Shown piece by piece: positions 1 to 62,788 of a stretch of DNA of 64,000 nt (position 1 is its first letter; every line of letters starts with the position of its first letter). Under the pieces are notes generated by a model. That model was not told where the DNA came from, did not search any database, and saw only the letters and a program-made list of their open reading frames with translations. The DNA is taken from IMG/VR virus record IMGVR_UViG_2061766007_000015, positions 9,636 through 73,635 of that record; one strand, written 5' to 3'. This stretch comes from a virus. Taxonomy: Duplodnaviria > Caudoviricetes. The position numbers and the translations under genes are program-made.

Positions 1-159
1 ATCTCTCTACGCTCATACCACGGCACTTTACAATCTAGGATATCCTGTATGTCTGCAAAACTCTTATCATAAGGCATCTGAATTAACTTCTTTGTGTCCG
101 CACTTGATACATAAGCATACAAGTCCAAAAGTTGTACGTACAACTTGTTGGGTATAGGA

Positions 160-318
160 TTACTTAGTGTTACTGTCTGCATACTTTCTCCTAAATAAAA
201 GGTTCTTATTGTCACGCTTAGACTTTTCTAGGCAAGTCTTTCCCATGCCTACTTTTCGATACTCGGGATTCTTTAATCTGCGACCACACCGCAGACAGTA
301 AATATATTCTTTTTCCAT
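160..318 (-). CDS. 52-aa zinc-finger protein, DUF6011-like (not in the ORF track)
   Basis: Hand translation MEKEYIYCLRCGRRLKNPEYRKVGMGKTC...; CxxCGRxLxxP...GxGxxC motif. Confidence 0.6.
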   Translation of the reverse strand: MEKEYIYCLRCGRRLKNPEYRKVGMGKTCLEKSKRDNKNLLFRRKYADSNTK

Positions 319-7357: not shown

Positions 7358-8356
7358 TTATTTGGAAATTTCTGAATTTTTTACCGGCGAGTTTTCAGCA
7401 TCTTCCTCATCTTGCTCTTCTTCTTCGACTATCCAATCTTCATCGAAATCTTCACCGCCACAACAAGGACATGTGTAACTGTACATTGGCACATTACTTC
7501 CCCAAAACTCTACCCAATCTGTATACTTTCTGGGTTCATCGAAATATTCTTTGCAATCCCTGCACTTGTACATCTTTAGTTCCTCGCTTTCTTTATCTTA
7601 CAAGAACATTATACAACGTATTTATCTTAAAATCAAGAGGACGCTTTATGCGCCCTCTTTTTTTTATTCTGCAGGCTCTATGCCGTCCTCGCCAATCAAA
7701 TAACAAGTTTCGTTATCACTAACAGCTGACTGAATATAGTAGAGCATCCTCGCACTCTCATACGAACCATGCGGCGCTTTTGCTAAAACTCGATACTTGG
7801 CACCTTTATAAAGTTCATCCTGCAATCGATACGATACGGCGAGTTTCTTATCCTCAACGTGCTCAACTACCCAATCAGTGTAATATTCATACTGACTTCC
7901 GGGGTTAGTAATTACAACGATATCACCGACTTCTATTTCAGCAGTCTTGTCAAACCAACGATTACGACATTCCTCACAAGTTGCACTATCATCCTCGAAC
8001 TGACAATTATTACAAGCCATCTCATAACAGTTTTTTAAATTGCCACTCCTATCAACTGCAACCTTATACTCACGATATACTATCTGCTTAATAAGTTCAT
8101 CATTTCCTTTGATGTACTTTTCGTAATTTGTCATTTAAAGTTCCTCCTACTCTACTTTAAGTTCAACCTTCCCATCTCTTTCCCATTTAAACAGTAAAAC
8201 TGAGAAATCACTTAAATCATCAGCAAAATAACTCTCTACGGATTCATCATCCAGCATTGTATCTGCAATATTGCCAACAATATTGGCAACTCTTGCTAAT
8301 GCCTGTCTATCATAGTCATCAAATGTAATAGTGCAAACCCTATCGCCTATAATCAT
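7358..8356 (-). CDS. Three hypothetical genes (7358-7573 zinc ribbon, 7664-8134 Cys-rich, 8147-8356)
   Basis: ORF track, RBSs, promoter at 7608-7640. Confidence 0.5.
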
Positions 8357-8766
8357 TCTAAGTCCTCCTTCAATTCGTTGGCTGTAATCTTAACCGGCAC
8401 AAGTGTCTGAGGCATAAACTCGATTTCATAAGCATAGGGTGAAACATTAACACCTGATACATCTTCGACGGTGTACATTGTCCACTCATTCAGGTAAATG
8501 TAATGCTTCTGATAAATCTGCTTAGCCTTATCAATTTCCACAAGTACTGCGATGCCGTCAGTAACATCCTCAATGGAAATCTTGCCCGTCATCTGCAGGA
8601 TGCACTTATCAGTTCTTGTGTTGATTACCGTAACTCTTCTTGTGACATTAAAGTTATCGGCTTCTTTACTTACATTGTATGATACTCTGTGAGCCTCTCT
8701 TTCCAGAAAGCATCCGCTCATAATCAATGTTGCTAAGATTAATAGGGTTAAAACTGTTTTCTTCAT
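8353..8766 (-). CDS. Phage lipoprotein
   Basis: Signal peptide with lipobox LIMSGC; EADNFNVTRRVTVIN motif. Confidence 0.65.
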   Translation of the reverse strand: MKKTVLTLLILATLIMSGCFLEREAHRVSYNVSKEADNFNVTRRVTVINTRTDKCILQMTGKISIEDVTDGIAVLVEIDKAKQIYQKHYIYLNEWTMYTVEDVSGVNVSPYAYEIEFMPQTLVPVKITANELKEDLE

Positions 8767-8826
8767 TTGTGTTCTCCTTTGTTTGTTTATCTTATGAAAA
8801 CATTATATAACATATTCAAGTAAAAA

Positions 8827-10408
8827 TCAACAGGACGAATCGTCCTCGTCATCGGGAATAATCGGTGCTATCAGCATATTAACCTTTCGGTCAACTTCTT
8901 CCAATTCTTCTTCAATCTCGGCAAGATTCTCATGCACCTGCGCTGTGCTGTCTGCGAGGTCTTTAAGCATCTTCAAATAATCCATGCCCATCTTCAAATA
9001 ATTGGTATTCATTATGTTGAAAGCCCGAGTTATACTAGAACGCCAATAACCAGTTGCAATTACTGCTGTAAAACCTAGTGTCACTAATACGATTAACATT
9101 AACTTTTCGTCTGTCATATTTTTTCTCCTTTTATCGTTTCTGCGTTTACTGCTATTACTTTCTGTAATGCTTTTTCGATTGGTTCATCGGGTACAGCAAC
9201 CCTTATCTTTGCACTTAAGTAGGTATCAAAAGTACGATAATCCTTCTCAGCATAAATTTCCATACACGGGATTATGCGCTCAGCCATACGTTCTGCCATC
9301 TCGTGCAGACTAAATTCAAATGCCTTTTCGGGGTCTGTTCTCATAACCATGAATGGTATTTTTACTCTCTCAGCAAATGTTGCAGTTCTAAACTGCATCA
9401 TCTCAATTCGTAATGGTGCGGCCCAATCATCATCTACCTGATACTCAGTACCACAATATTTACACTTGCTTATACCAGTATGTGAGATTGGTAACATCTG
9501 ACCGCAGTTCGCACATCTAAATGCTTTAGGTTCGTTCATTTTCTTCTCCTGTCTCATATAAGATTATAAACGCTTGGTCTGTATGTCCGGGTATTTTATT
9601 AACTTTTGTTTCTGTGACACTTAACACTTTATATCCTCTATTTTGAATTGCGCTTAATGCTTTTTCAAGTTCATATGCTACTGGTTCGTAGGATACTATC
9701 TGGTTAATTATTCTTGTCTCAATCATTCTTCCCCCTTATCTGCCATGATTTTCAACTTCCGTCTTGTGGCTTTTGAATTGAGTCTCTTTTCCTTTTTCCA
9801 ACTATGCGGATGGTTTTTTGCTCCGCAACAATACTTCTTGTAGAATCGGTCAAGAAAGGCTAACTTTTTCGTGCTTCTCATTCTTCCCCCTTATCTGCTT
9901 CAATCACACTCGGAGCGACACAATTTATTATTTTTACGTTCATAAGTGGGTGAGTTGTTATGCTGAAATACTTTCTAAACGTTTCTTCGTTTTCCACCAC
10001 TTTATCAATGTCAATCAATCTTCCGTGTCCTTTTGGAAGTTCTATGCCGTTCCAGACAATCTCGTCCATCTCGGTAGCCATGCCAAACTTAATGCGTTTC
10101 TCAAGATATTTGTACACTTCATCGGGTATCTTAATAACAATCTCTTTCATCGGTTACTCTCCTTTCTGCCAAGGCGAAACATACGGCGGTTTTGTTGGAA
10201 CTTCGTTTTCGTATTCATCACCTTTACGCAATCCCTCGGAATGTTTCTTTAATTGGTCGAAGTGACCTCTCATAAAACGTCCGTACTGATTGTGATTGTG
10301 CGTTGTTCTGCTTTCAAAATCCAAGTACAAACAAATTGTGGCAAGCGTTTCAAGAATCTCTATAACCGCTTTTTTGTAGGTCATAAGTAATTTAAACTTT
10401 TTTATCAT
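8827..10408 (-). CDS. Run of small hypothetical genes (8827-9117 TM plus coiled coil, 9114-9557 zinc ribbon, 9526-9726, 9878-10150, 10154-10408, plus a mini-ORF at 9723-9881)
   Basis: ORF track and coupled junctions. Confidence 0.5.
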
Positions 10409-16799: not shown

Positions 16800-16885
16800 A
16801 TGTTATCTCACTTTCTATAAACATTATAGCACATATTTTAAAGAAATCAACGGGAGCAACACACTACATGTTGCTCCCACATTGA

Positions 16886-17965
16886 TTATTCGTTAAACAG
16901 ACCAAGCACCTGAACTGTAATGCCGTCTACAAGTTTAAGTGTATTTTCTGTACCGTACTGAATGGTTACTTCGTCTACAGAGTTAACTTTGACCTGAGTC
17001 TTGAACATCTCAACATCAATCATGCACTCAAAATTTGTTTCGCCGCCACTCATACAGTCAAGAACCTCAGAACCAACTGATTTCTTATTTTCCATAGTAA
17101 GCGAGCCACCACCGAATGTCAACTTAATGACATTACGGTCATAATCACCGACGAATACTGAAAGTCTGTCAAGTGCCTGCAGTAACTCATTCTTCTTGAC
17201 CGTACAAGTATTTGTAAACTCAGTATTCACAAGACTGGACACGAGGTCAACATCATACTCATCAGCGTTACCATCGGCTTTCGTAATAAGTCTGCAATCA
17301 GCAGTAGTAAATACCAGCTTATCATCTTCTCTTACATAGTCAATTAGGCCTTCCTGACCGTTTGGCATAAGTTCAAGTAAATCAACAGTTGCCGCACTTA
17401 ACAATACTGGCTCTTCTGCGAACTTCTTGTTAATGGAACAAATCTTTTCTCCGTCTGTACTGAAAATGCACTCGCCTGCGTAATATGATGTAAGAGCAAT
17501 TACGTTAGGGTCTGTACACAGAGCCGTCTTTGCTGTAGAAATCATGGTATTAATAAGACCTACTGATACCTTCTCAGGTGTAATGCCTTCCGGAACAGGA
17601 GGTGCAGTAAGTTTAACAAATGTGCCATCAACATCAAGCGGTAATTCAATCTTGTACTTACTCTTGCCGCCGAGTACTGTAAGACTGTCTGCTTCGATAT
17701 CCAATGTGATGTTCTCGCAGGTCATCTTAGAAATCAATTTTGCAAAACTGTCGGCTAATACTACTATGCTGAACGTGTCAGCAGTATCTACCGCTGTCGA
17801 TACCTGAAAGTAGTTTGTTGTGTCTGTGGTGGTCAAAACAAGTCTTTTACCTGCTAAGTCAATTGCCATAAGACTTGTGATGGGTAAAAGTTTGTTGTTT
17901 GATGAACCCTTTACTGCTTTTGCTACGAGTTCCTGAAATTTGGTAGTGTTAATTGTGAATTGCAT
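16886..17965 (-). CDS. dnaN: DNA polymerase III beta sliding clamp; start reset to MQFTIN
   Basis: KLLPITS, LVLTTTD, FSTDG, ELLQALDRL; ~360 aa; AAGGAGG RBS before 17965. Confidence 0.85.
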   Translation of the reverse strand: MQFTINTTKFQELVAKAVKGSSNNKLLPITSLMAIDLAGKRLVLTTTDTTNYFQVSTAVDTADTFSIVVLADSFAKLISKMTCENITLDIEADSLTVLGGKSKYKIELPLDVDGTFVKLTAPPVPEGITPEKVSVGLINTMISTAKTALCTDPNVIALTSYYAGECIFSTDGEKICSINKKFAEEPVLLSAATVDLLELMPNGQEGLIDYVREDDKLVFTTADCRLITKADGNADEYDVDLVSSLVNTEFTNTCTVKKNELLQALDRLSVFVGDYDRNVIKLTFGGGSLTMENKKSVGSEVLDCMSGGETNFECMIDVEMFKTQVKVNSVDEVTIQYGTENTLKLVDGITVQVLGLFNE

Positions 17966-18821
17966 TGTGTCCTCCTTTTGCATAGTTGCCACTTATTATT
18001 TTAGGTACTGCGTGTTCCCAATCTATTATGTGATGGTAACGCTTATTTGAAACGCCCATGGTTGCTACTTTAACACATGATGGGCAATTCATAACTGTGT
18101 AGAATGATTTAACATACGTACCGTTATCTAGATACGATTCAGTTAAACCGCCAGAAAATGCTTGTGTCGTACACTGGTCTAATGAGACATTTGCTGTAGT
18201 AAGAAATAGCTTTCCTCTACTGCCGTGCAACACATATGCGGTTGTATCTTCATTGATTCTGCCAATGAAATCAAATGGTCTATCCGTCTTACAAAAGAAC
18301 GAGTTCATGGCCTTTCGTGCAAGTTTCTTCTTCCACACATTGGAACCTTTGCCACCAATGAAATCACCTGTTTGGGCAAATGCTACAGTATGTGCTCCTG
18401 ATTTCTCAAGAAAGTTTATGTACACATCAATAATGGAATCTAAGTCTCGCACATAGATTGTACCAAACTTACCAGTCTCATCTTCATACCTGCAACGAAA
18501 CTCTTGGTAATCATCATCAAGTTCCAAGAAGTAAGTTAAGCCAAGTTCTTTTGCTATTCGATGACACTGATTACGTGCAAACAGTACTATGTTTCTTGCG
18601 GGGTTTAAGTCGCAAGTGTCACTGGTTTTTGAGGCTTCAAGTTTATCGAACTGTATGACTTTATCGCCATACAATCTTCTGTACTCATCTTCCTGTTTGT
18701 CCTCATTGTCAATGATGATATAGTACTTTCCTGTATAACCACATTTCTTTAACGAGTCTACGGTTACAACTCTATCTGCTCTGCCATGAGACAGAATGAA
18801 TACCGCAAAATCATTTCTCAT
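17949..18821 (-). CDS. GT-A glycosyltransferase, TAGT/GREB1-like (candidate DNA base glycosyltransferase)
   Basis: FILSHGRA, LDDDY, GRINED, RYHH...PKII. Confidence 0.8.
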   Translation of the reverse strand: MRNDFAVFILSHGRADRVVTVDSLKKCGYTGKYYIIIDNEDKQEDEYRRLYGDKVIQFDKLEASKTSDTCDLNPARNIVLFARNQCHRIAKELGLTYFLELDDDYQEFRCRYEDETGKFGTIYVRDLDSIIDVYINFLEKSGAHTVAFAQTGDFIGGKGSNVWKKKLARKAMNSFFCKTDRPFDFIGRINEDTTAYVLHGSRGKLFLTTANVSLDQCTTQAFSGGLTESYLDNGTYVKSFYTVMNCPSCVKVATMGVSNKRYHHIIDWEHAVPKIISGNYAKGGHNAIHN

Positions 18822-19207
18822 TTTGTCTTTTCCCCGCTAGTCCGCATAATCTCGTCAATGTCTTTGGACAACTGTATGTAGCCGTTTGCTATTGCATCGT
18901 CAATGTCGATAAGCACCAACGCACTCTTCTCCATTAAATTCTGCATTTCTTCCCCGGCATGCGCATAGTAATCGGCAATCTTGGCATAATTAAATACGAT
19001 ATGTCTTGTTGCCGCAAGTCGTAAAAACTGCTTCTCTTTCTCCGACACATTTGAGTCATTGATTTCCTTTAACAACTGTGAATACTTACCATACTGATAA
19101 AGAGACTCAATAGGTGGTGCTACTGCACTTGGCTCATACTGCGGTATTGCTGACTTCTTGGTGTAAATGTTCTCTTTTGCAGTTTGCTTGACGTTAAATA
19201 ATGCCAT
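18818..19207 (-). CDS. Small protein between the two glycosyltransferases; start reset to MALFNV
   Basis: YTKK...YEP...FLRLAATRH..FNY.KIADYYAH; strong RBS before 19207. Confidence 0.7.
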   Translation of the reverse strand: MALFNVKQTAKENIYTKKSAIPQYEPSAVAPPIESLYQYGKYSQLLKEINDSNVSEKEKQFLRLAATRHIVFNYAKIADYYAHAGEEMQNLMEKSALVLIDIDDAIANGYIQLSKDIDEIMRTSGEKTK

Positions 19208-20027
19208 TTGTACCTCCTTTCTTATAGTGACCACTGATTATTTTGGGTGTAAAGTTCTTATATGGTATTCTTAGTTTGTCGTAATTTTGTGGTGTACCAT
19301 TAGTAAGAATTACATGGTGTTCCACATACTCTAGTCTAGTTATGCCTTTGTAACAATCGCCAGTTGCCATGGGTGCTCTACAGTTCACTTGCATGCCGAA
19401 TGGATATAATCCAATATTGCCACGCTTATTGTTGTCGAGAACAATAGTCATATCCTCAAGCACACTTGCTTTATACGGGCCTATCGGCTTCTTCACATCA
19501 TACACAAACATATTGCCGTAATGTGAAGCAAATTTATAGGTATCTTTATTTATGCCGATATAGTATGATGCACTTGGTGGACCAACTATACCTACATGCT
19601 CACTGCAATTTAAGAAACGGATATAAGCATCGATTACACGCTCAAAATCAAACTTCTTTGTACTACATATTTTATCATCTTTACTCTGCCATCTCAATTG
19701 GACGCTCTCAATATCATCAAACATAAAGCAGATGTATCTTATTCCATTTGCTTCGGCATACTCATCGATAAATTGTCTGGCGTATGTACACACCTTATGT
19801 GTATAATTGTACGTACCAACGCTATCGACTTTATCGTAGTAATCTTCCTTCTTAAATCTGAGAACCTTATAATCAACACCGTCCACATAATCGTACAGTT
19901 GTGGGTCATCCTCACCAACAACAACGTATATTGGATGACTCACATGATACGACCTGAGTAATTCAAGTGTTGGTATGTACTTTGCTTTACCGTAACTCGG
20001 TATAAAATATGCTACATTATCTATCAT
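19194..20027 (-). CDS. Second, divergent TAGT-like glycosyltransferase; ATGA overlap with the polA stop
   Basis: FIPSYGKA, MFDDI, LEDM, TPKII; paralogous to 17949-18821. Confidence 0.72.
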   Translation of the reverse strand: MIDNVAYFIPSYGKAKYIPTLELLRSYHVSHPIYVVVGEDDPQLYDYVDGVDYKVLRFKKEDYYDKVDSVGTYNYTHKVCTYARQFIDEYAEANGIRYICFMFDDIESVQLRWQSKDDKICSTKKFDFERVIDAYIRFLNCSEHVGIVGPPSASYYIGINKDTYKFASHYGNMFVYDVKKPIGPYKASVLEDMTIVLDNNKRGNIGLYPFGMQVNCRAPMATGDCYKGITRLEYVEHHVILTNGTPQNYDKLRIPYKNFTPKIISGHYKKGGTNGII

Positions 20028-22339
20028 ACTTTTATTGATTCTCCGTACCAAGACTTAGATACTTCTACATCACAACTGAATGGCATATGAAGTATCTTCT
20101 GTGCCGCATCACTCATTACCTGAGCAAGCAACTCTGAACATTCCTTAGCGTTTTCTTCAGGACATTCTGCGATTACTTCATCGTGTACTGGTATAAGCAA
20201 TCTAAAGCCTAACTCTTTCAGCCTTGCATTGTTATGCAAATCAATCATGGCTAACTTTGTTAAGTCTGCGGCACTACCTTGGATTCTTGCATTTACTACC
20301 TGTCTTGTTGCTTCTGCTATCTTCTTTCCGTTGTCAATTATCCAAATACCTTCTTCGTTGGCTTCTTCAAATATCCTACGTTTCTGATTGAATCGACAAT
20401 TAGCAAGTTTAGCCAAATAGTATTTTTGCTTGTTCTCGGGTACAGGTGCAACTGAATCATCTGAATCAAAGTCAAGCACATCCCAATTCACTAATGCGCT
20501 AGAGTCTGACCATTTAAACTCGTACTCGGGTAACTGCATATCTGGCAATCTTCTCTTACGTCCGCATACAGTGGTTACATAGCCTAATGTTCTAGCCATC
20601 TCTAATGAGGTATCTTCAAATATCTTTATCTCAAGATACTTCTTATATAGGTTGGCTTTCAACTGCTTCGCTCTATCCAAAGTTATATGCATGCCATCAG
20701 CAACACTTTCATCACCACGTCCATACAAAATACCTAACAACACTGGCTTTGCATCACTTCGTCTTTGCTTGTACTCTTTAGGGTTCTTATTACCGTTCTC
20801 GTCAAACTCTCGGCACATCTCGTATGCCACTTCAAAACATGCGCTGGCTACGTGGCTGTAAATATCATCGCCTCGTACTCTTGCTTCGTACAATGCTGTA
20901 TATCCCAACTCATTACAGAATGAAGCCAAGCATGACGGCTCTTGCTGACTATAGTCCGATGACAATAACACACATCCGTCACTTGCGGTAAACATCTGTC
21001 GAATGTCTGTAATGTGAGATGGTATGTTCTGTAAGTTAGGTTCGCTACTAGACATTCTACCTGTGTCTGCACCATACTGATTAAACTTACAATGTATTCT
21101 TCCATCATTCGGATTTACACACTCAGGTAGTTTATCAATAAACGTGCTGACTATGGTTGAGAACTCTCGATAGTCTAGTATGGCTTTCGCAACGTCGTTA
21201 TCTATCGCCTTAAGACTTTCTTCGTTGGTACTTCTTGACGGCTTCTTCGTCTTTTTATCGACAGGCTGTTCACACCCTAATATATCGTAGAGTATGATTG
21301 CTAACTGTTGAGGACTCTCGATATTAATCGGGTCACTTAGTTTGCAGTCGTGCTTGTGTATGCTTTTATAACGCTCAATATCGTTGCTGTAACGCTCTAG
21401 AACACTGTAGAAAGCGTTTACACGCTCTTCTAATAGTGCATGATACTTTTCTTTTAATTTAGCGTTATATTCGAAATCAAACTTAACACCAGCGTCTTCC
21501 ATATCAGCCACAACTTCAACTAGTGGCATCTCAATGTTAAAGAATACCCAAGCAAGTTTACGCATATCTTCTCGGTCGGAGTCTGACCTTAGATACTGAC
21601 TCTGGTACAAATAGAACTCATAGGTAATTCTCGGGTCATGAGCCGCATATAAAACTGCTGTCTGTAATGGTATGAGTGTAAATGGTATGCCTTTAAACAA
21701 TTCATCGAAAGTAAACGCATCTTCTTTTCCATCCAATACATACTTCTGATGTAATGGCTTCAATCTGTTCACAGGCTCGTTCTCATTCAACAACCGCTGT
21801 GCTAAATAACAATCCCACGAACAGTATATACCTTTAACACCTACCATGTTTCGCATTACTCGTATATCGAAATCCGCATTGAACATTACGATAAACGGCT
21901 TTGCTTCCAACATGCGCTCAAACTCTTGGCGTATCAGTTCGATTGGCAATTGTCCATCAATCTTACTGTTAGTCATGTAACTAACATGATTGATTGGTAT
22001 ATACGCTTCATTCAGTCCAGGTGTGTAAATACATATACCAGCAACTGTATCAAGCAGTGGATTAAGTCCCGTTGTCTCAGTATCGATACTTACTACACCG
22101 TTCGCAATAATCTTATCAATATATTGTTTTAGGGTCTCTTCGTCCTGGATTAAAGTGCAGTTATCTCGATATTTGCCTAAGTACTTCTCAACCGTGGCTA
22201 TTGCAGTCTGTACTCTGGCCATTAAACCCCCACTACCCTTGATGGTAATGGGGGCTTTGTAAGATGCACTATTTGCTTTTTTCGCTACCGAAACATCCTG
22301 CGCCCTGCTGGGTCTACTCGGTATAGTGAAAAGTGCCAT
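20024..22339 (-). CDS. polA: Family A DNA polymerase with 3'-5' exonuclease and no 5'-3' exonuclease domain
   Basis: IDTETTG, TGRMSSSEPNLQNIP, SDYSQQE, AKPVLLGILYG, IQGSAAD, VHDE. Confidence 0.95.
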   Translation of the reverse strand: MALFTIPSRPSRAQDVSVAKKANSASYKAPITIKGSGGLMARVQTAIATVEKYLGKYRDNCTLIQDEETLKQYIDKIIANGVVSIDTETTGLNPLLDTVAGICIYTPGLNEAYIPINHVSYMTNSKIDGQLPIELIRQEFERMLEAKPFIVMFNADFDIRVMRNMVGVKGIYCSWDCYLAQRLLNENEPVNRLKPLHQKYVLDGKEDAFTFDELFKGIPFTLIPLQTAVLYAAHDPRITYEFYLYQSQYLRSDSDREDMRKLAWVFFNIEMPLVEVVADMEDAGVKFDFEYNAKLKEKYHALLEERVNAFYSVLERYSNDIERYKSIHKHDCKLSDPINIESPQQLAIILYDILGCEQPVDKKTKKPSRSTNEESLKAIDNDVAKAILDYREFSTIVSTFIDKLPECVNPNDGRIHCKFNQYGADTGRMSSSEPNLQNIPSHITDIRQMFTASDGCVLLSSDYSQQEPSCLASFCNELGYTALYEARVRGDDIYSHVASACFEVAYEMCREFDENGNKNPKEYKQRRSDAKPVLLGILYGRGDESVADGMHITLDRAKQLKANLYKKYLEIKIFEDTSLEMARTLGYVTTVCGRKRRLPDMQLPEYEFKWSDSSALVNWDVLDFDSDDSVAPVPENKQKYYLAKLANCRFNQKRRIFEEANEEGIWIIDNGKKIAEATRQVVNARIQGSAADLTKLAMIDLHNNARLKELGFRLLIPVHDEVIAECPEENAKECSELLAQVMSDAAQKILHMPFSCDVEVSKSWYGESIKV

Positions 22340-61342: not shown

Positions 61343-61680
61343 AATTATTAGCCTCCGTTTCTACTAAAACTATAACATTAGATTTCGCTATTGTCAATCA
61401 AAAAGCCATTGGCGGCGAAATTCCTCCCTCCCACGCTCCCCAATTTCCCCAGGTTATTGGTATCCGGTACCGGTATAAAATCGCAAGCGCACCCCTGGTT
61501 TATTGGAAACCTGACGGGACGTGTATCCAAGTGCTCAACTCGCTCTGCGCTCAAAAAAGCGTGTCAGTGCAACGAGTATACGTATGTGTGTTGTCGTGCG
61601 TGTCTATGAGTCTCTGTGCGTGTTATTTGAGTATGTTTTTGCGTTGTGCTGTGCGTGTAGAATTTTAAAATCGCACAAAA

Positions 61681-61709
61681 AAAAGAGCACTCTATTTGAG
61701 TGCTCTTTT
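61681..61709 (-). terminator. Intrinsic terminator of the island gene
   Basis: AAAAGAGCACTC-TATTT-GAGTGCTCTTTT; T tract on the minus strand. Confidence 0.85.
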
Positions 61710-61719
61710 GTGTTGCTGT

Positions 61720-62280
61720 TTACTGTGCTTTTGCTGTCTCTGTCTTTTGTGCTGTTGCTGTCTTGCTTGCTGTTGCTGTCTTTTGTGCTTTTGTCTCTGT
61801 CTCAAAAGCAACTACACAACGTTGTGCGTACTCAAGTGTGTTAAATAACTCTGTCAGTGTGTTGAAGTAAGAACGTATTACAAAAGACTGTTTGTAACTC
61901 TGTCTTGCAAAACACATTGACTTGTCACACTGTAAGTACTTCTCTATCTTATCAAAAGATTGTGTGAATTGAATTGCGCTAGCATCGTATATCTTGCATA
62001 TTGTGTGTTGCTTGCTGTCAAGTAGTGTTAACGTACACGCTTGACTTTCAGATATTTCATAATGAAAGTCATTGCTGATTAAGTGCTTATCAAGTGTTGC
62101 AAGTGCTGACTCTTCACAGAGACTTAAATCAGTGAAAAACTTCTTAAGTGCTGTGCGCTCTTCTTTTGTCGCTGTGCTTTTTCTCAGTGCTCTAACTTCT
62201 TTTGCGCTGTAAATCGTTGTGTTAACTTCTTTGATTGCTTTTACAGTGTTGTTAGTGTTGTTAGTTTTAGTAGTTTTCAT
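61720..62280 (-). CDS. Putative immediate-early protein lacking Gly, Pro and Trp
   Basis: 186-aa ORF with its own promoter, RBS region and terminator. Confidence 0.75.
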   Translation of the reverse strand: MKTTKTNNTNNTVKAIKEVNTTIYSAKEVRALRKSTATKEERTALKKFFTDLSLCEESALATLDKHLISNDFHYEISESQACTLTLLDSKQHTICKIYDASAIQFTQSFDKIEKYLQCDKSMCFARQSYKQSFVIRSYFNTLTELFNTLEYAQRCVVAFETETKAQKTATASKTATAQKTETAKAQ

Positions 62281-62349
62281 TCTACGCCCACTTTCTCGTG
62301 CTTTAGCACGTTAAACTATGAAATTTCGCACACTATTGTGCTTGAGATA

Positions 62350-62410
62350 ATAATAAACGATATACTACGTAAATGCAAGCACTTTTTGAAAAAAAAATTA
62401 TTTTTTTTGC
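62350..62410 (-). promoter_or_regulatory. Sigma-A-type promoter with A/T-tract UP element
   Basis: TTGCAT (62378-62373)-N17-TATTAT (62355-62350), preceded by A and T runs. Confidence 0.7.
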
Positions 62411-62788
62411 TTATAATAGTAGAAACACTTTTAAAAATCACTTTTTAAAAGTGCTGTAAACGTTGATTTTATGCGCTTTTGCGCTCTTTTTTCGTGCTGT
62501 TTTTTGTTGCGTTCTTTCTATATTAATGCGATTTTTCATTAAGCACTTTAGTGTGCGAAAGCGCAGATTGTGAGAGTGGGGTACCCGCCAGAGAGCACCC
62601 ACCAGCACAATAAAATAGTCCTCTCTCCGGAGAGTAGTCCTGAGCCGGGGCTGTAATATACACCTTAACCCCGCCTCACCGGTGCGTGGTGCCAACCGCT
62701 AGCGGAAAAGAAAAATAACCCAGCGGGACCTAATAATAGGCTCACTGGGTAGTTGGCTTATATATAACGTCGGTAAAGGTGATGTAGT

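Follow-up and report, generated by a model that had tools for sequence, protein, structure and literature searches.

A putative glycosylation cassette with a detached ParB-like C-terminal domain in the replication operon of a rumen phage, with DNA as its probable target

Three genes lying between polA and dnaN of a rumen phage, encoding two glycosyltransferases of the TAGT family (GT1 and GT2) and a small partner that appears to be a detached C-terminal domain (CTD) of ParB-like proteins, are best explained from their sequences as a glycosylation cassette that is coupled in translation and expressed together with the replisome genes of the phage. DNA is its probable target. We give about an even chance to the whole reading, in which the cassette would glycosylate phage DNA with the CTD as adaptor, GT2 as core enzyme and GT1 acting in a second step. 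The order on the minus strand was polA, GT1, small CTD gene, GT2 and dnaN, and the cassette occupied positions 17949-20027 of the window, which is the whole 64,000-nt stretch of DNA that was analysed. The features are as follows.

16850..16880, minus strand: intrinsic terminator, 14-bp stem with 6 G-C pairs and a T-rich tail
16886..17965, minus strand: dnaN-like sliding clamp (DNA_pol3_beta, 1.8e-9), downstream flank
17949..18821, minus strand: GT2, putative core TAGT-family glycosyltransferase, 290 aa (PF20691, phrog_842)
18818..19207, minus strand: small partner, stand-alone ParB-like CTD homolog, 129 aa (P0031; homology, phrog_620)
19194..20027, minus strand: GT1, putative accessory TAGT-family GT-A glycosyltransferase, 277 aa (PF20691, phrog_842)
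20024..22339, minus strand: polA, family A DNA polymerase with 3'-5' exonuclease (DNA_pol_A, 2.9e-89, and DNA_pol_A_exo1), upstream flank

The genome of this rumen phage was 73,635 bp with direct terminal repeats, and was 100% complete.

All five genes overlapped at their junctions, as the initial annotation had stated, and the four overlaps were read from the sequence. The polA stop codon overlapped the GT1 start in a 4-nt ATGA, GT1 and the small gene shared 14 nt, the small gene and GT2 were joined by another 4-nt ATGA, and GT2 and dnaN overlapped by 17 nt, the dnaN ATG at 17965 being inside the 3' end of GT2. The start of GT1 was the ATG at 20027, which is backed by the N-termini of homologs and by the 277-aa protein of the window (P0001). 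The Shine-Dalgarno sequence of the small gene, AAAGGAGG, was at 19220-19213 within the C-terminal KKGG codons of GT1, and an identical one for dnaN was at 17978-17971 within the AKGG codons of GT2. The terminator started 6 nt past the dnaN stop and closed the polA-GT1-CTD-GT2-dnaN transcription unit. The modification was earlier called replication-coupled; it may be so, judging by the operon position, which is weak evidence for function.

Membership in the TAGT family (PF20691) was defined as a match above the gathering score of 27.5 bits, and both enzymes passed it: GT2 with 112.5 bits (3.5e-32, profile positions 1-202 of 205) and GT1 with 52.3 bits (9.3e-14, positions 4-185 of 205). They were the only two TAGT matches in a profile search of the complete genome, and both also matched phrog_842 (GT2 1e-64, GT1 5e-14). 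They shared 23% identity (E 3e-18), and profile-profile comparison aligned GT2 to GT1 over its full length with a probability of 99.9% (E 1.5e-35). The two paralogous TAGT-like glycosyltransferases of the initial annotation were thus recovered, and they appear to be deep paralogs within the family. An AF2 model of GT1 (pLDDT 80.7, pTM 0.83) showed a GT-A fold and matched 158 PDB chains (E<=1e-3), and its best viral matches were TAGT proteins (TM 0.78); the same fold is predicted for GT2 from the full-length alignment. No solved structure related to the GT2 family by sequence was found, and none of the three cassette proteins had a match in NCBIfam or PADLOC.

The active-site motifs of DNA-modifying phage GT-A enzymes are R...DDD...ED(Y/F) (Pyle et al., bioRxiv 10.1101/2023.12.21.572611), and GT2 keeps the full set, with N190-E191-D192 in the window. 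Its active-site residues R14, D102-D103-D104-Y105 and D192 were at least 95% conserved among 128 homologs, and the residues conserved in at least 90% also included D41, R83, Q150, D153, R169-K170, K238, R261, H263 and H264. Eight of these GT2 invariants (Q150, D153, R169, K170, K238, R261, H263 and H264) had no counterpart in GT1. The invariants of the GT1 family were Y12, D40-D41-P42, R84, F103-D104-D105-I106, R112, E191-D192 and C216-R217; at the active-site positions GT1 carries K14 (K or R in the family), F103-D104-D105 with the first Asp replaced, and the invariant E191-D192. The DxD-type motifs and the divergence of GT1 described earlier are borne out by these alignments, with SYGK in GT1 versus SHGR in GT2 and FDD versus DDD. 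In the tree, GT1 belonged to a distinct clade with 100% support and a long stem, and GT2 to the core clade of enzymes encoded after a CTD gene, with 98% support. The GT2 family had 1275 representatives at 50% identity (E<=1e-3), including fusions to a SAM-methyltransferase, a sulfotransferase or a second TAGT domain; an N-terminal CTD was looked for in the GT2-family fusion proteins and none was found. Two proteins in which the N-terminus of a GT is joined to ParB or CTD sequence (P0401 and P0408) look chimeric or frameshifted and were set aside.

The small protein showed 43-44% identity to a ParB-like protein of an E. coli phage (E 4e-31) and to gp21 of halovirus HHTV-2 (E 1e-31), confined to about the last 120 aa of both, and it matched positions 148-215 of 217 of phrog_620, "ParB-like partition protein". 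It had been described as a small partner gene; the role of dedicated partner held up, but the protein is not anonymous, since these homologies indicate a stand-alone version of the CTD found in the ParB-like partners of TAGT glycosyltransferases across phages. ParB_N (PF02195) had no match in the small protein or anywhere in the complete genome, and the small protein was the only CTD match there. The profile of fused relatives matched solved ParB/Noc/Srx N-domains only through its N-terminal part (best-matching stretches within positions 3-177), a part missing from the small protein, and no solved chain matched its CTD portion by sequence. There were at least 1265 stand-alone and at least 630 longer clusters of CTD relatives, and nearly all of the 120 longer ones listed carry PF02195. 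The PF03009 label on one protein (P0415) looks spurious, and its sequence reads as ParB_N; this protein, too, was set aside. In the AF2 model of the small protein, residues 1-25 were disordered and a helical domain at about 30-100 had pLDDT >90. Fold searches with this model, which would have shown the canonical ParB C-terminal dimerisation fold, gave no clear match to a solved structure, with a best E of 1.5 (Foldseek) and a best Z of 4.1 (VIA-wide), and in the ESM Atlas unnamed clusters and one ParB_N cluster at TM 0.33. The disordered peptide has the consensus Y-T-K-K-x-x-I-P-Q-Y-E-P-S, in which Y15, P22 and Y24 were invariant and K18 and Q23 at least 90% conserved, and the invariant Tyr/Pro motif spans bacterial and archaeal viruses. 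Both the CTD and, in fused forms, the ParB N-part were acidic (median pI about 5), which is not what one would expect of a DNA-binding adaptor.

Among relatives, 99 of 102 CTD genes, in 93 loci, were immediately 5' of a TAGT glycosyltransferase gene, or of a radical-SAM gene followed by one. The number of glycosyltransferases per module was one in 58 loci, two in 31 and three in 3. In this survey CTD and GT2 seem to make up the conserved core, with GT1 as an optional addition. The GT1 clade usually has its own second CTD (CTD'), which is lost in the window and which lacks the first half of the Tyr/Pro motif, keeping only Y-x-P. polA and/or dnaN accompanied 42 of 51 stand-alone-CTD loci, and the ParB-fused forms examined were placed ahead of terminase. 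The pair of CTD or ParB-like protein and glycosyltransferase is found in viruses whose hosts are E. coli, Lactobacillus, Nocardia, Vibrio and a haloarchaeon, and hosts so diverse point to a target common to all of them, as DNA is. A radical-SAM/SPASM-like gene was present in 13 of the 93 loci, between CTD and GT2 or, in ParB-fused modules, after GT2; three diverged relatives without it keep GT1 (69-81% identical), CTD and GT2 intact. In one relative lineage (L012/L018) a cytidylyltransferase-like gene followed the glycosyltransferases, and the smallest carriers of the module were temperate phages of 30-40 kb. Searches for related loci with GT1 alone as the query found no relatives.

Every characterised TAGT-type enzyme that we know of needs a hydroxymethyl-base acceptor (5hmC/5hmU) or a sugar already on it. 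The initial annotation had noticed no TET/JBP or hydroxymethylase supplier in the window and had proposed searching the rest of the genome, including for C5-methyltransferase. Profiles of Tet_JBP, Thymidylat_synt (PF00303, with a control that was positive in 10 of 14 genomes), C5 DNA_methylase, ParB_N and Radical_SAM had no match in the complete genome, which also contained no homolog of the radical-SAM gene of the relatives. Among 50 other module-carrying virus records (29 at least 90% complete), none had Tet_JBP, a search that had no positive control, or Thymidylat_synt, for which the ThyA control worked. PF12851 misses some phage 5mYOXs (PMC13229309), and in the replication arm about ten ORFs, 170-250 aa long, were without a family match. 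Most likely, the sugar acceptor is not the product of any recognisable phage-encoded enzyme of the TET/JBP, ThyA or radical-SAM type.

Among the closest known arrangements is the orphan pair of ParB-like protein and TAGT enzyme in Rac-like phages of E. coli (for example vB_EcoS-611R4), the Lactobacillus phages c5, phiLdb and phi jlb1, and HHTV-2 (gp21-gp22), whose glycosyltransferases were 42-46% identical to GT2. In both, the partner is followed by an overlapping glycosyltransferase gene and a hydroxylase is absent; the window differs in that the ParB/Srx N-domain is missing, the cassette is between polA and dnaN rather than ahead of terminase, and a deeply divergent second glycosyltransferase (GT1) is 5' of the partner. 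By homology, the ParB-N-less CTD embedded in the replication operon thus appears to be a variant of this orphan pair, on which literature searches, including one on radical SAM with DNA hypermodification, found no paper. Clusters of 5mYOX (TET/JBP) and C5-methyltransferase with GT-A enzymes (PMC8256090; bioRxiv 10.1101/2023.12.21.572611) share the Pfam TAGT family and the R...DDD...ED motifs with GT2, and sequential glycosyltransferases and tailoring enzymes build longer glycans in them (Burke et al. 2021, PMC8256090; Pyle et al.). The window has a dedicated ParB-CTD partner instead of a methyltransferase/dioxygenase pair, and no ThyA-like enzyme. ParB-like partners activate phage DNA thymine dioxygenases, as in 5mYOX176/ParB176, in which both the NBD and the CTD of ParB are required (O'Toole et al., PNAS 2026, PMC13229309). 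That system likewise combines a DNA-modifying enzyme with a ParB-derived protein without a DNA-binding domain; the window has a glycosyltransferase rather than a dioxygenase, and only the CTD, with neither Tet_JBP nor ParB_N.

In T-even phages, hmC is made before replication by dCMP hydroxymethylase, and the first glucose comes from a different enzyme. The beta-glucosyl-HMC-alpha-glucosyltransferase of T2/T6 gives its name to phrog_842, matched by GT1 and GT2, and the GT1 model matched a T-even-type homolog structurally (rank 17). The T6-like TAGT is assigned to the second glucose on DNA (Durham paper, PMC13390438), so a TAGT enzyme that lengthens an existing DNA sugar has a precedent. Unlike T-even phages, the source phage had no ThyA-family hydroxymethylase in the PF00303 search of its genome.

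Based on these comparisons, GT2 would be a TAGT-family enzyme using a nucleotide sugar and a metal, and the CTD adaptor may bind it and activate or target it, in parallel with the ParB-like activation of thymine dioxygenases on double-stranded DNA. GT2 would put the first sugar on the target. GT1 keeps the donor and metal residues (FDD and ED), but the acceptor-side invariants of GT2 are replaced in it, and its most likely role is to add a second sugar or to act on a different acceptor. A two-step (disaccharide) product, as suggested in the initial annotation, is plausible, since modules carry one, two or three glycosyltransferases and the acceptor-side residues are changed in GT1; stepwise glycan building is also what the multi-enzyme modules and the methyltransferase, sulfotransferase and second-TAGT fusions of GT2 relatives would lead one to expect. 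For DNA as the target speak the homology of the partner to the tail of ParB/Srx-domain proteins and the DNA-related genomic context of CTD-GT modules; against it, the ParB N-domain required in the dioxygenase system is absent in the window, and a hydroxymethyl-base supplier was found neither in the complete genome nor in the 50 records.

The genome contained GATC once against about 255 expected and AGCT 14 times against about 225, and the whole lineage is purged of GATC, often also of AGCT, GGCC or CCGG. The phage DNA therefore appears still exposed to ordinary restriction enzymes, and this near-total avoidance of GATC and AGCT argues against blanket hypermodification. Modification would follow replication and reach newly made phage DNA at sparse sites or in specific sequences, not at every base. 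A CC/GG context, earlier proposed to link the cassette to a GG/CC-poor island of the window (runs of 760 and 290 bp with a single GG/CC step between), was not supported: the longest GG/CC-free runs in 12 complete module-carrying genomes, one of them with GT1 and GT2, were 75-357 bp, which is not comparable with the island. GG/CC density inside the cassette was ordinary, and the island protein as a query found no related loci.

The same linkage of CTD and glycosyltransferase could also mean that a protein is glycosylated, which we consider unlikely: the substrate would be the CTD partner itself, glycosylated at an invariant Tyr or a nearby Thr/Ser as a glycogenin-like primer or carrier, or else replisome or virion proteins. 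Glycogenin, which attaches glucose to a tyrosine of its own, is a GT-A enzyme, and eukaryotic GREB1, with a TAGT-like domain, has been reported to glycosylate a protein. The disordered peptide with Y15, P22 and Y24 invariant in bacterial and archaeal viruses would suit such a role, as would the obligate linkage and translational coupling of CTD and GT, the acidity of the CTD, unlike a DNA binder, and the failure to recognise a DNA acceptor supplier in the genome or the 50 records. But CTD' of GT1 relatives keeps only Y-x-P, those phage TAGT/GT-A enzymes that have been characterised use DNA as substrate, and DNA transactions are suggested by the ParB/Srx N-domain fused to the CTD in relatives and by the constant position next to polymerase and clamp or terminase genes. 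Still less probable is an envelope polymer or small molecule as the target, for example teichoic acid as with prophage TarP, in a receptor change or superinfection block. Among solved structures, TarP is reported to match the GT-A DNA glycosyltransferases of phages best (Pyle et al., bioRxiv 10.1101/2023.12.21.572611), the GT1 model matches many envelope/glycan GT-A enzymes including TarS, and the cytidylyltransferase-like gene of L012/L018 would fit. We regard this target as very unlikely, because the pair is common to phages whose hosts, Gram-negative, Gram-positive and haloarchaeal, have unrelated envelopes, its fixed partner is ParB-derived with replication or packaging genes as neighbours, and no flippase, membrane GT partner or polyprenol-linked gene was found in the 93 loci screened for modelled families.

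If DNA is the target, the acceptor may still be 5hmC or 5hmU, supplied by the host or by an enzyme of the phage that escaped recognition, either a divergent 5mYOX or an analog that works without oxygen. The gaps of PF12851 in phage 5mYOX diversity, the Tet_JBP searches without a positive control and the ORFs without a family match leave room for this, and the rSAM/SPASM-like enzyme of the 13 loci could be an anaerobic acceptor-maker in rumen and gut phages. We rate such a hidden supplier as quite improbable, since the source genome has no radical-SAM gene and the cassette is intact in three relatives without one, the 50 records gave no ThyA-like or Tet_JBP gene with the ThyA control positive, carriers of 30-40 kb have little room for an additional pathway, and the restriction-site avoidance argues against extensive base replacement. 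It is possible, though we find it doubtful, that the CTD+TAGT core is self-sufficient: sugars would be placed directly on a canonical or methylated base or another DNA position, with the detached ParB tail as an activator opening the duplex and GT1 making the disaccharide, and no TET, ThyA-type or radical-SAM step would be needed. In the lineage of this rumen phage, such a system would have become part of the replisome operon.

To our knowledge, TAGT-type enzymes are the main known route by which phage DNA is coated with sugars after replication. About 65% of GT-containing contigs had no neighbouring base-modifying enzyme and were set aside in an earlier study (Pyle et al., bioRxiv 10.1101/2023.12.21.572611). 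A large share of such orphan glycosyltransferases appears to have a fixed partner, the ParB-derived CTD, and the ParB N-domain seems dispensable in a whole phage lineage. This narrows the question to a two-protein system of 129 aa and 290 aa, directly expressible and assayable. If its target is DNA, glycosylation would be independent of hydroxymethyl bases, and if it is the partner protein, proteins would be primed by a system of a new kind; in both cases a gene pair that is very common in phages would be explained. If the reading of a self-sufficient CTD and TAGT enzyme is true, thousands of bacterial and archaeal phages may carry a new DNA glycosylation chemistry.

The two glycosyltransferase genes, GT1 and GT2, belong to a row of five minus-strand genes:

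20024-22339, minus strand, polA, first gene in the order of the cassette region
19194-20027, minus strand, glycosyltransferase GT1, 277 aa
18818-19207, minus strand, small protein (CTD), 129 aa
17949-18821, minus strand, glycosyltransferase GT2, 290 aa
16886-17965, minus strand, dnaN-like clamp, last gene in the order
16850-16880, terminator with a 14-bp stem, 3' of dnaN

Read from the sequence, all four junctions overlap (4, 14, 4 and 17 nt, respectively), which agrees with the gene row described in the initial annotation. The Shine-Dalgarno of the small gene, AAAGGAGG, sits within the KKGG codons at the C-terminus of GT1, and that of dnaN is also AAAGGAGG, within AKGG codons of GT2. These overlaps, the internal Shine-Dalgarnos and the terminator after dnaN indicate that the cassette is co-transcribed and co-translated with polA and dnaN. 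The virus record is complete (73,635 bp, with terminal repeats), and its left and middle parts encode clamp loader, RecA, DnaB, primase, SNF2 helicase, SSB and resolvase; Lar, an N6/N4 DNA methylase and a Cas4-like nuclease are encoded there too. No enzyme of nucleotide metabolism was found.

At 7855-9850 of the whole genome (L004, own coordinates; the upstream gene extends into window positions 1-215), a gene for a 371-aa protein overlaps that of an N6/N4 DNA methyltransferase (311 aa). The 371-aa protein has a weak PP-loop ATPase signature (QueC/PAPS-reductase-like) at residues ~86-149. These two may be a second DNA-modification pair.

Both glycosyltransferases passed the Pfam gathering score of TAGT (GT2, 112.5 bits; GT1, 52.3 bits), and they were the only TAGT matches in the whole genome. 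Both also matched phrog_842, a family named for the T-even second-step glucosyltransferase. They are 23% identical to each other (E 3e-18), and a comparison of their family profiles gives a full-length alignment with 99.9% probability, so the proposed paralogy is borne out. The GT2 family is large and has 1275 representatives at 50% identity; among its residues with at least 90% conservation are R14, D41, R83, D102-D104, Y105, Q150, D153, R169, K170, D192, K238, R261, H263 and H264. This set matches the R...DDD...ED pattern that Pyle et al. (bioRxiv 10.1101/2023.12.21.572611) give for phage GT-A enzymes that modify DNA. The GT1 family is small, with 30 proteins from a word-based search, the window's own included, and has invariant Y12, DDP40-42, R84, FDD103-105, R112, ED191-192 and CR216-217. 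The AF2 model of GT1 has a GT-A fold and its closest models are viral TAGT proteins. In the profile alignment against GT2, the metal/donor residues are kept in GT1 and Q150/D153, R169/K170, K238 and R261/H263/H264 of GT2 have no counterpart, which suggests that GT1 would share the donor chemistry of GT2 and act on a different acceptor. Some GT2-family proteins are fused to a class-I SAM methyltransferase, Sulfotransfer_2 or a second TAGT domain (P0190, P0199, P0195, P0193, P0215), and such fusions suggest that glycans of other carriers are methylated, sulfated or longer.

The small gene, noticed earlier only as a partner between the two glycosyltransferases, can now be placed. Its product shares 43-44% identity (E 1e-31) with the C-terminal ~120 residues of two glycosyltransferase-partner proteins, gp21 of halovirus HHTV-2 and the 'ParB' protein adjoining a glycosyltransferase in E. 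coli phage vB_EcoS-611R4, and is thus a homolog of the C-terminal part of ParB-like proteins (CTD). A ParB/Srx N-domain was found neither in the small protein nor anywhere in the complete genome. Stand-alone CTD proteins form at least 1265 clusters. Longer relatives make up at least 630, and of the 120 longer ones listed nearly all carry ParB_N. The AF2 model shows a disordered N-terminus with invariant Y15, P22 and Y24 (K18 and Q23 at 90% or more), a helical domain at residues ~30-100 with pLDDT >90, and a C-terminal helix of lower confidence. Fold and profile searches found no clear match among solved structures.

Local HMMs for GT1, GT2, CTD, ParB-N, the radical-SAM enzyme of relatives, polA and dnaN were used to scan 93 loci: the window, 80 IMG/VR loci from the CTD alignment, nine assembly loci and three GenBank phage loci. 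These counts include copies of one contig from different sources and are not numbers of independent lineages. Directly after the CTD gene came a TAGT glycosyltransferase, or a radical-SAM gene and then a glycosyltransferase, for 99 of 102 CTD genes; the exceptions were one truncated contig and one lineage with reversed order. Stand-alone CTD was present in 51 of the 93 loci, 42 of which had polA and/or dnaN in the locus, and the ParB-fused form in 42, none of which had either gene. The modules had one glycosyltransferase in 58 loci, two in 31 and three in 3.

In a quick maximum-likelihood tree, GT2 of the window fell inside the core clade of glycosyltransferases following CTD (98% support), and GT1 in a separate, long-stemmed clade of eight rows (100% support). 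A shorter CTD copy belonging to GT1 (CTD', ~110-120 aa) stands before it in five of these rows; this copy is 36% identical to the window CTD, and Y-x-P is all that it retains of the motif. It lies directly upstream of GT1 in the following relatives, and also in L027, L030 and L038:

L005, 5673-6011, CTD'
L007, 5679-6011, CTD'
L008, 651-989, CTD'

Since CTD' precedes GT1 in most GT1-carrying relatives, the modules are assemblies of repeated CTD-GT units. CTD' has been lost in the subclade of the window, L010 and L011, and a genome search found no second CTD in the complete genome. In more distant relatives, whose GT1 is 43-46% identical, the genes run polA-CTD'-GT1-CTD-rSAM-GT2-dnaN, where rSAM is a generic radical-SAM enzyme of ~320 aa that has a weak SPASM/twitch signal and comes nearest to MoaA and anSME-like maturases. 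Its gene lies between CTD and GT2:

L005, 7251-8213, rSAM
L007, 7219-8181, rSAM
L008, 2203-3162, rSAM

L001, L033, L050, L069, L072, L077, L078 and L082 also bear it. Overall, rSAM was found in 13 of the 93 loci, including homologs after GT2 in seven ParB-fused loci, and the complete genome has no radical-SAM gene or homolog of this rSAM. In phages of anaerobes, this enzyme may make an acceptor without oxygen or tailor the sugar. A core of CTD and GT2, with accessory GT1, optional rSAM and tailoring enzymes and no recognisable hydroxylase, is well supported.

In one lineage of relatives of ~100-150 kb (L012 and L018), CTD-GT-GT is followed by a cytidylyltransferase-like (CTP_transf_like) gene of 144 aa (L012:7164-7598), which suggests that the phage might make its own activated donor. 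Several relatives have polA split into two genes, at L010:2152-5415, L013:180-4988 and L012:330-4954; the inserts are, respectively, a GIY-YIG endonuclease gene, SNF2 helicase and N6/N4 methylase genes, and a gene for a 556-aa protein without assignment.

Restriction sites bear on how much of the DNA could be modified. In the whole genome, GATC occurs once against ~255 expected, AGCT 14 times against ~225, GGCC 50 against 133 and GAATTC once against 17.5. The GATC purge is common to nearly all loci of the polA-dnaN lineage (L005-L057), in any module form, and to HHTV-2, while avoidance of AGCT, GGCC, CCGG and GCGC differs from phage to phage, as if tracking different host restriction systems. 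Phages with every C or T glycosylated would have little reason for such a purge. Heavy modification of the DNA is thus probably absent; a mark on DNA, if this is indeed the target, is likely to be sparse or sequence-specific, or not to block those restriction enzymes.

A GG/CC-free island does exist at window 61527-62578, with runs of 760 and 290 bp where the mean spacing is 14.5 bp. Twelve complete genomes that carry the module, seven from the polA lineage (one with CTD'-GT1-CTD-GT2) and five with the ParB-fused form, had longest GG/CC-free runs of 75-357 bp, and therefore the module does not generally bring such an island with it; the suggested CC/GG context linking the glycosyltransferases to the island is not upheld. 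Two relatives had weaker neighbouring runs (G010, 357 and 251 bp; G001, 222 and 235 bp), and the ten other carriers had no comparable island.

What the enzymes glycosylate is best guessed to be DNA, to which we give about an even chance. The grounds are the characterised members of the TAGT family, the ParB-derived partner, the precedent of ParB-activated phage DNA dioxygenases (PMC13229309), neighbouring genes of replication or packaging, and hosts among both bacteria and archaea. Cultured carriers include Lactobacillus phages c5 and phiLdb, Nocardia phage NTR1, HHTV-2 and E. coli Rac-like prophages. The classical version, DNA with a hidden hydroxymethyl supplier, would add to the chance of a DNA target but looks improbable in itself. 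Tet_JBP (searched without a positive control), Thymidylat_synt, C5 DNA methylase, ParB_N and Radical_SAM had no match in the complete genome, which extends the earlier remark on the missing supplier from the window to the whole genome; Tet_JBP (again without a positive control) and Thymidylat_synt were also absent from 50 further virus records that carry the module, of which 29 are at least 90% complete. On the other side, PF12851 misses part of the phage dioxygenases (O'Toole et al., PMC13229309), and about ten ORFs of 170-250 aa in the genome had no family match. Protein glycosylation is a real rival, though an unlikely one, and would fall notably on the invariant tyrosine motif of the CTD partner; the family and neighbourhood evidence favouring DNA counts against it. 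An envelope or small-molecule target is very unlikely.

Pyle et al. (bioRxiv 10.1101/2023.12.21.572611) mentioned, without follow-up, glycosyltransferases adjoining ParB-like, polymerase and clamp genes. The identity of CTD as a ParB-like C-terminal homolog is the main addition to the initial annotation. Particular to this system are the stand-alone adaptor without ParB-N, the fixed site within a replisome operon, GT1 as a deep paralog whose own adaptor is gone, and the radical-SAM insert in sister lineages.
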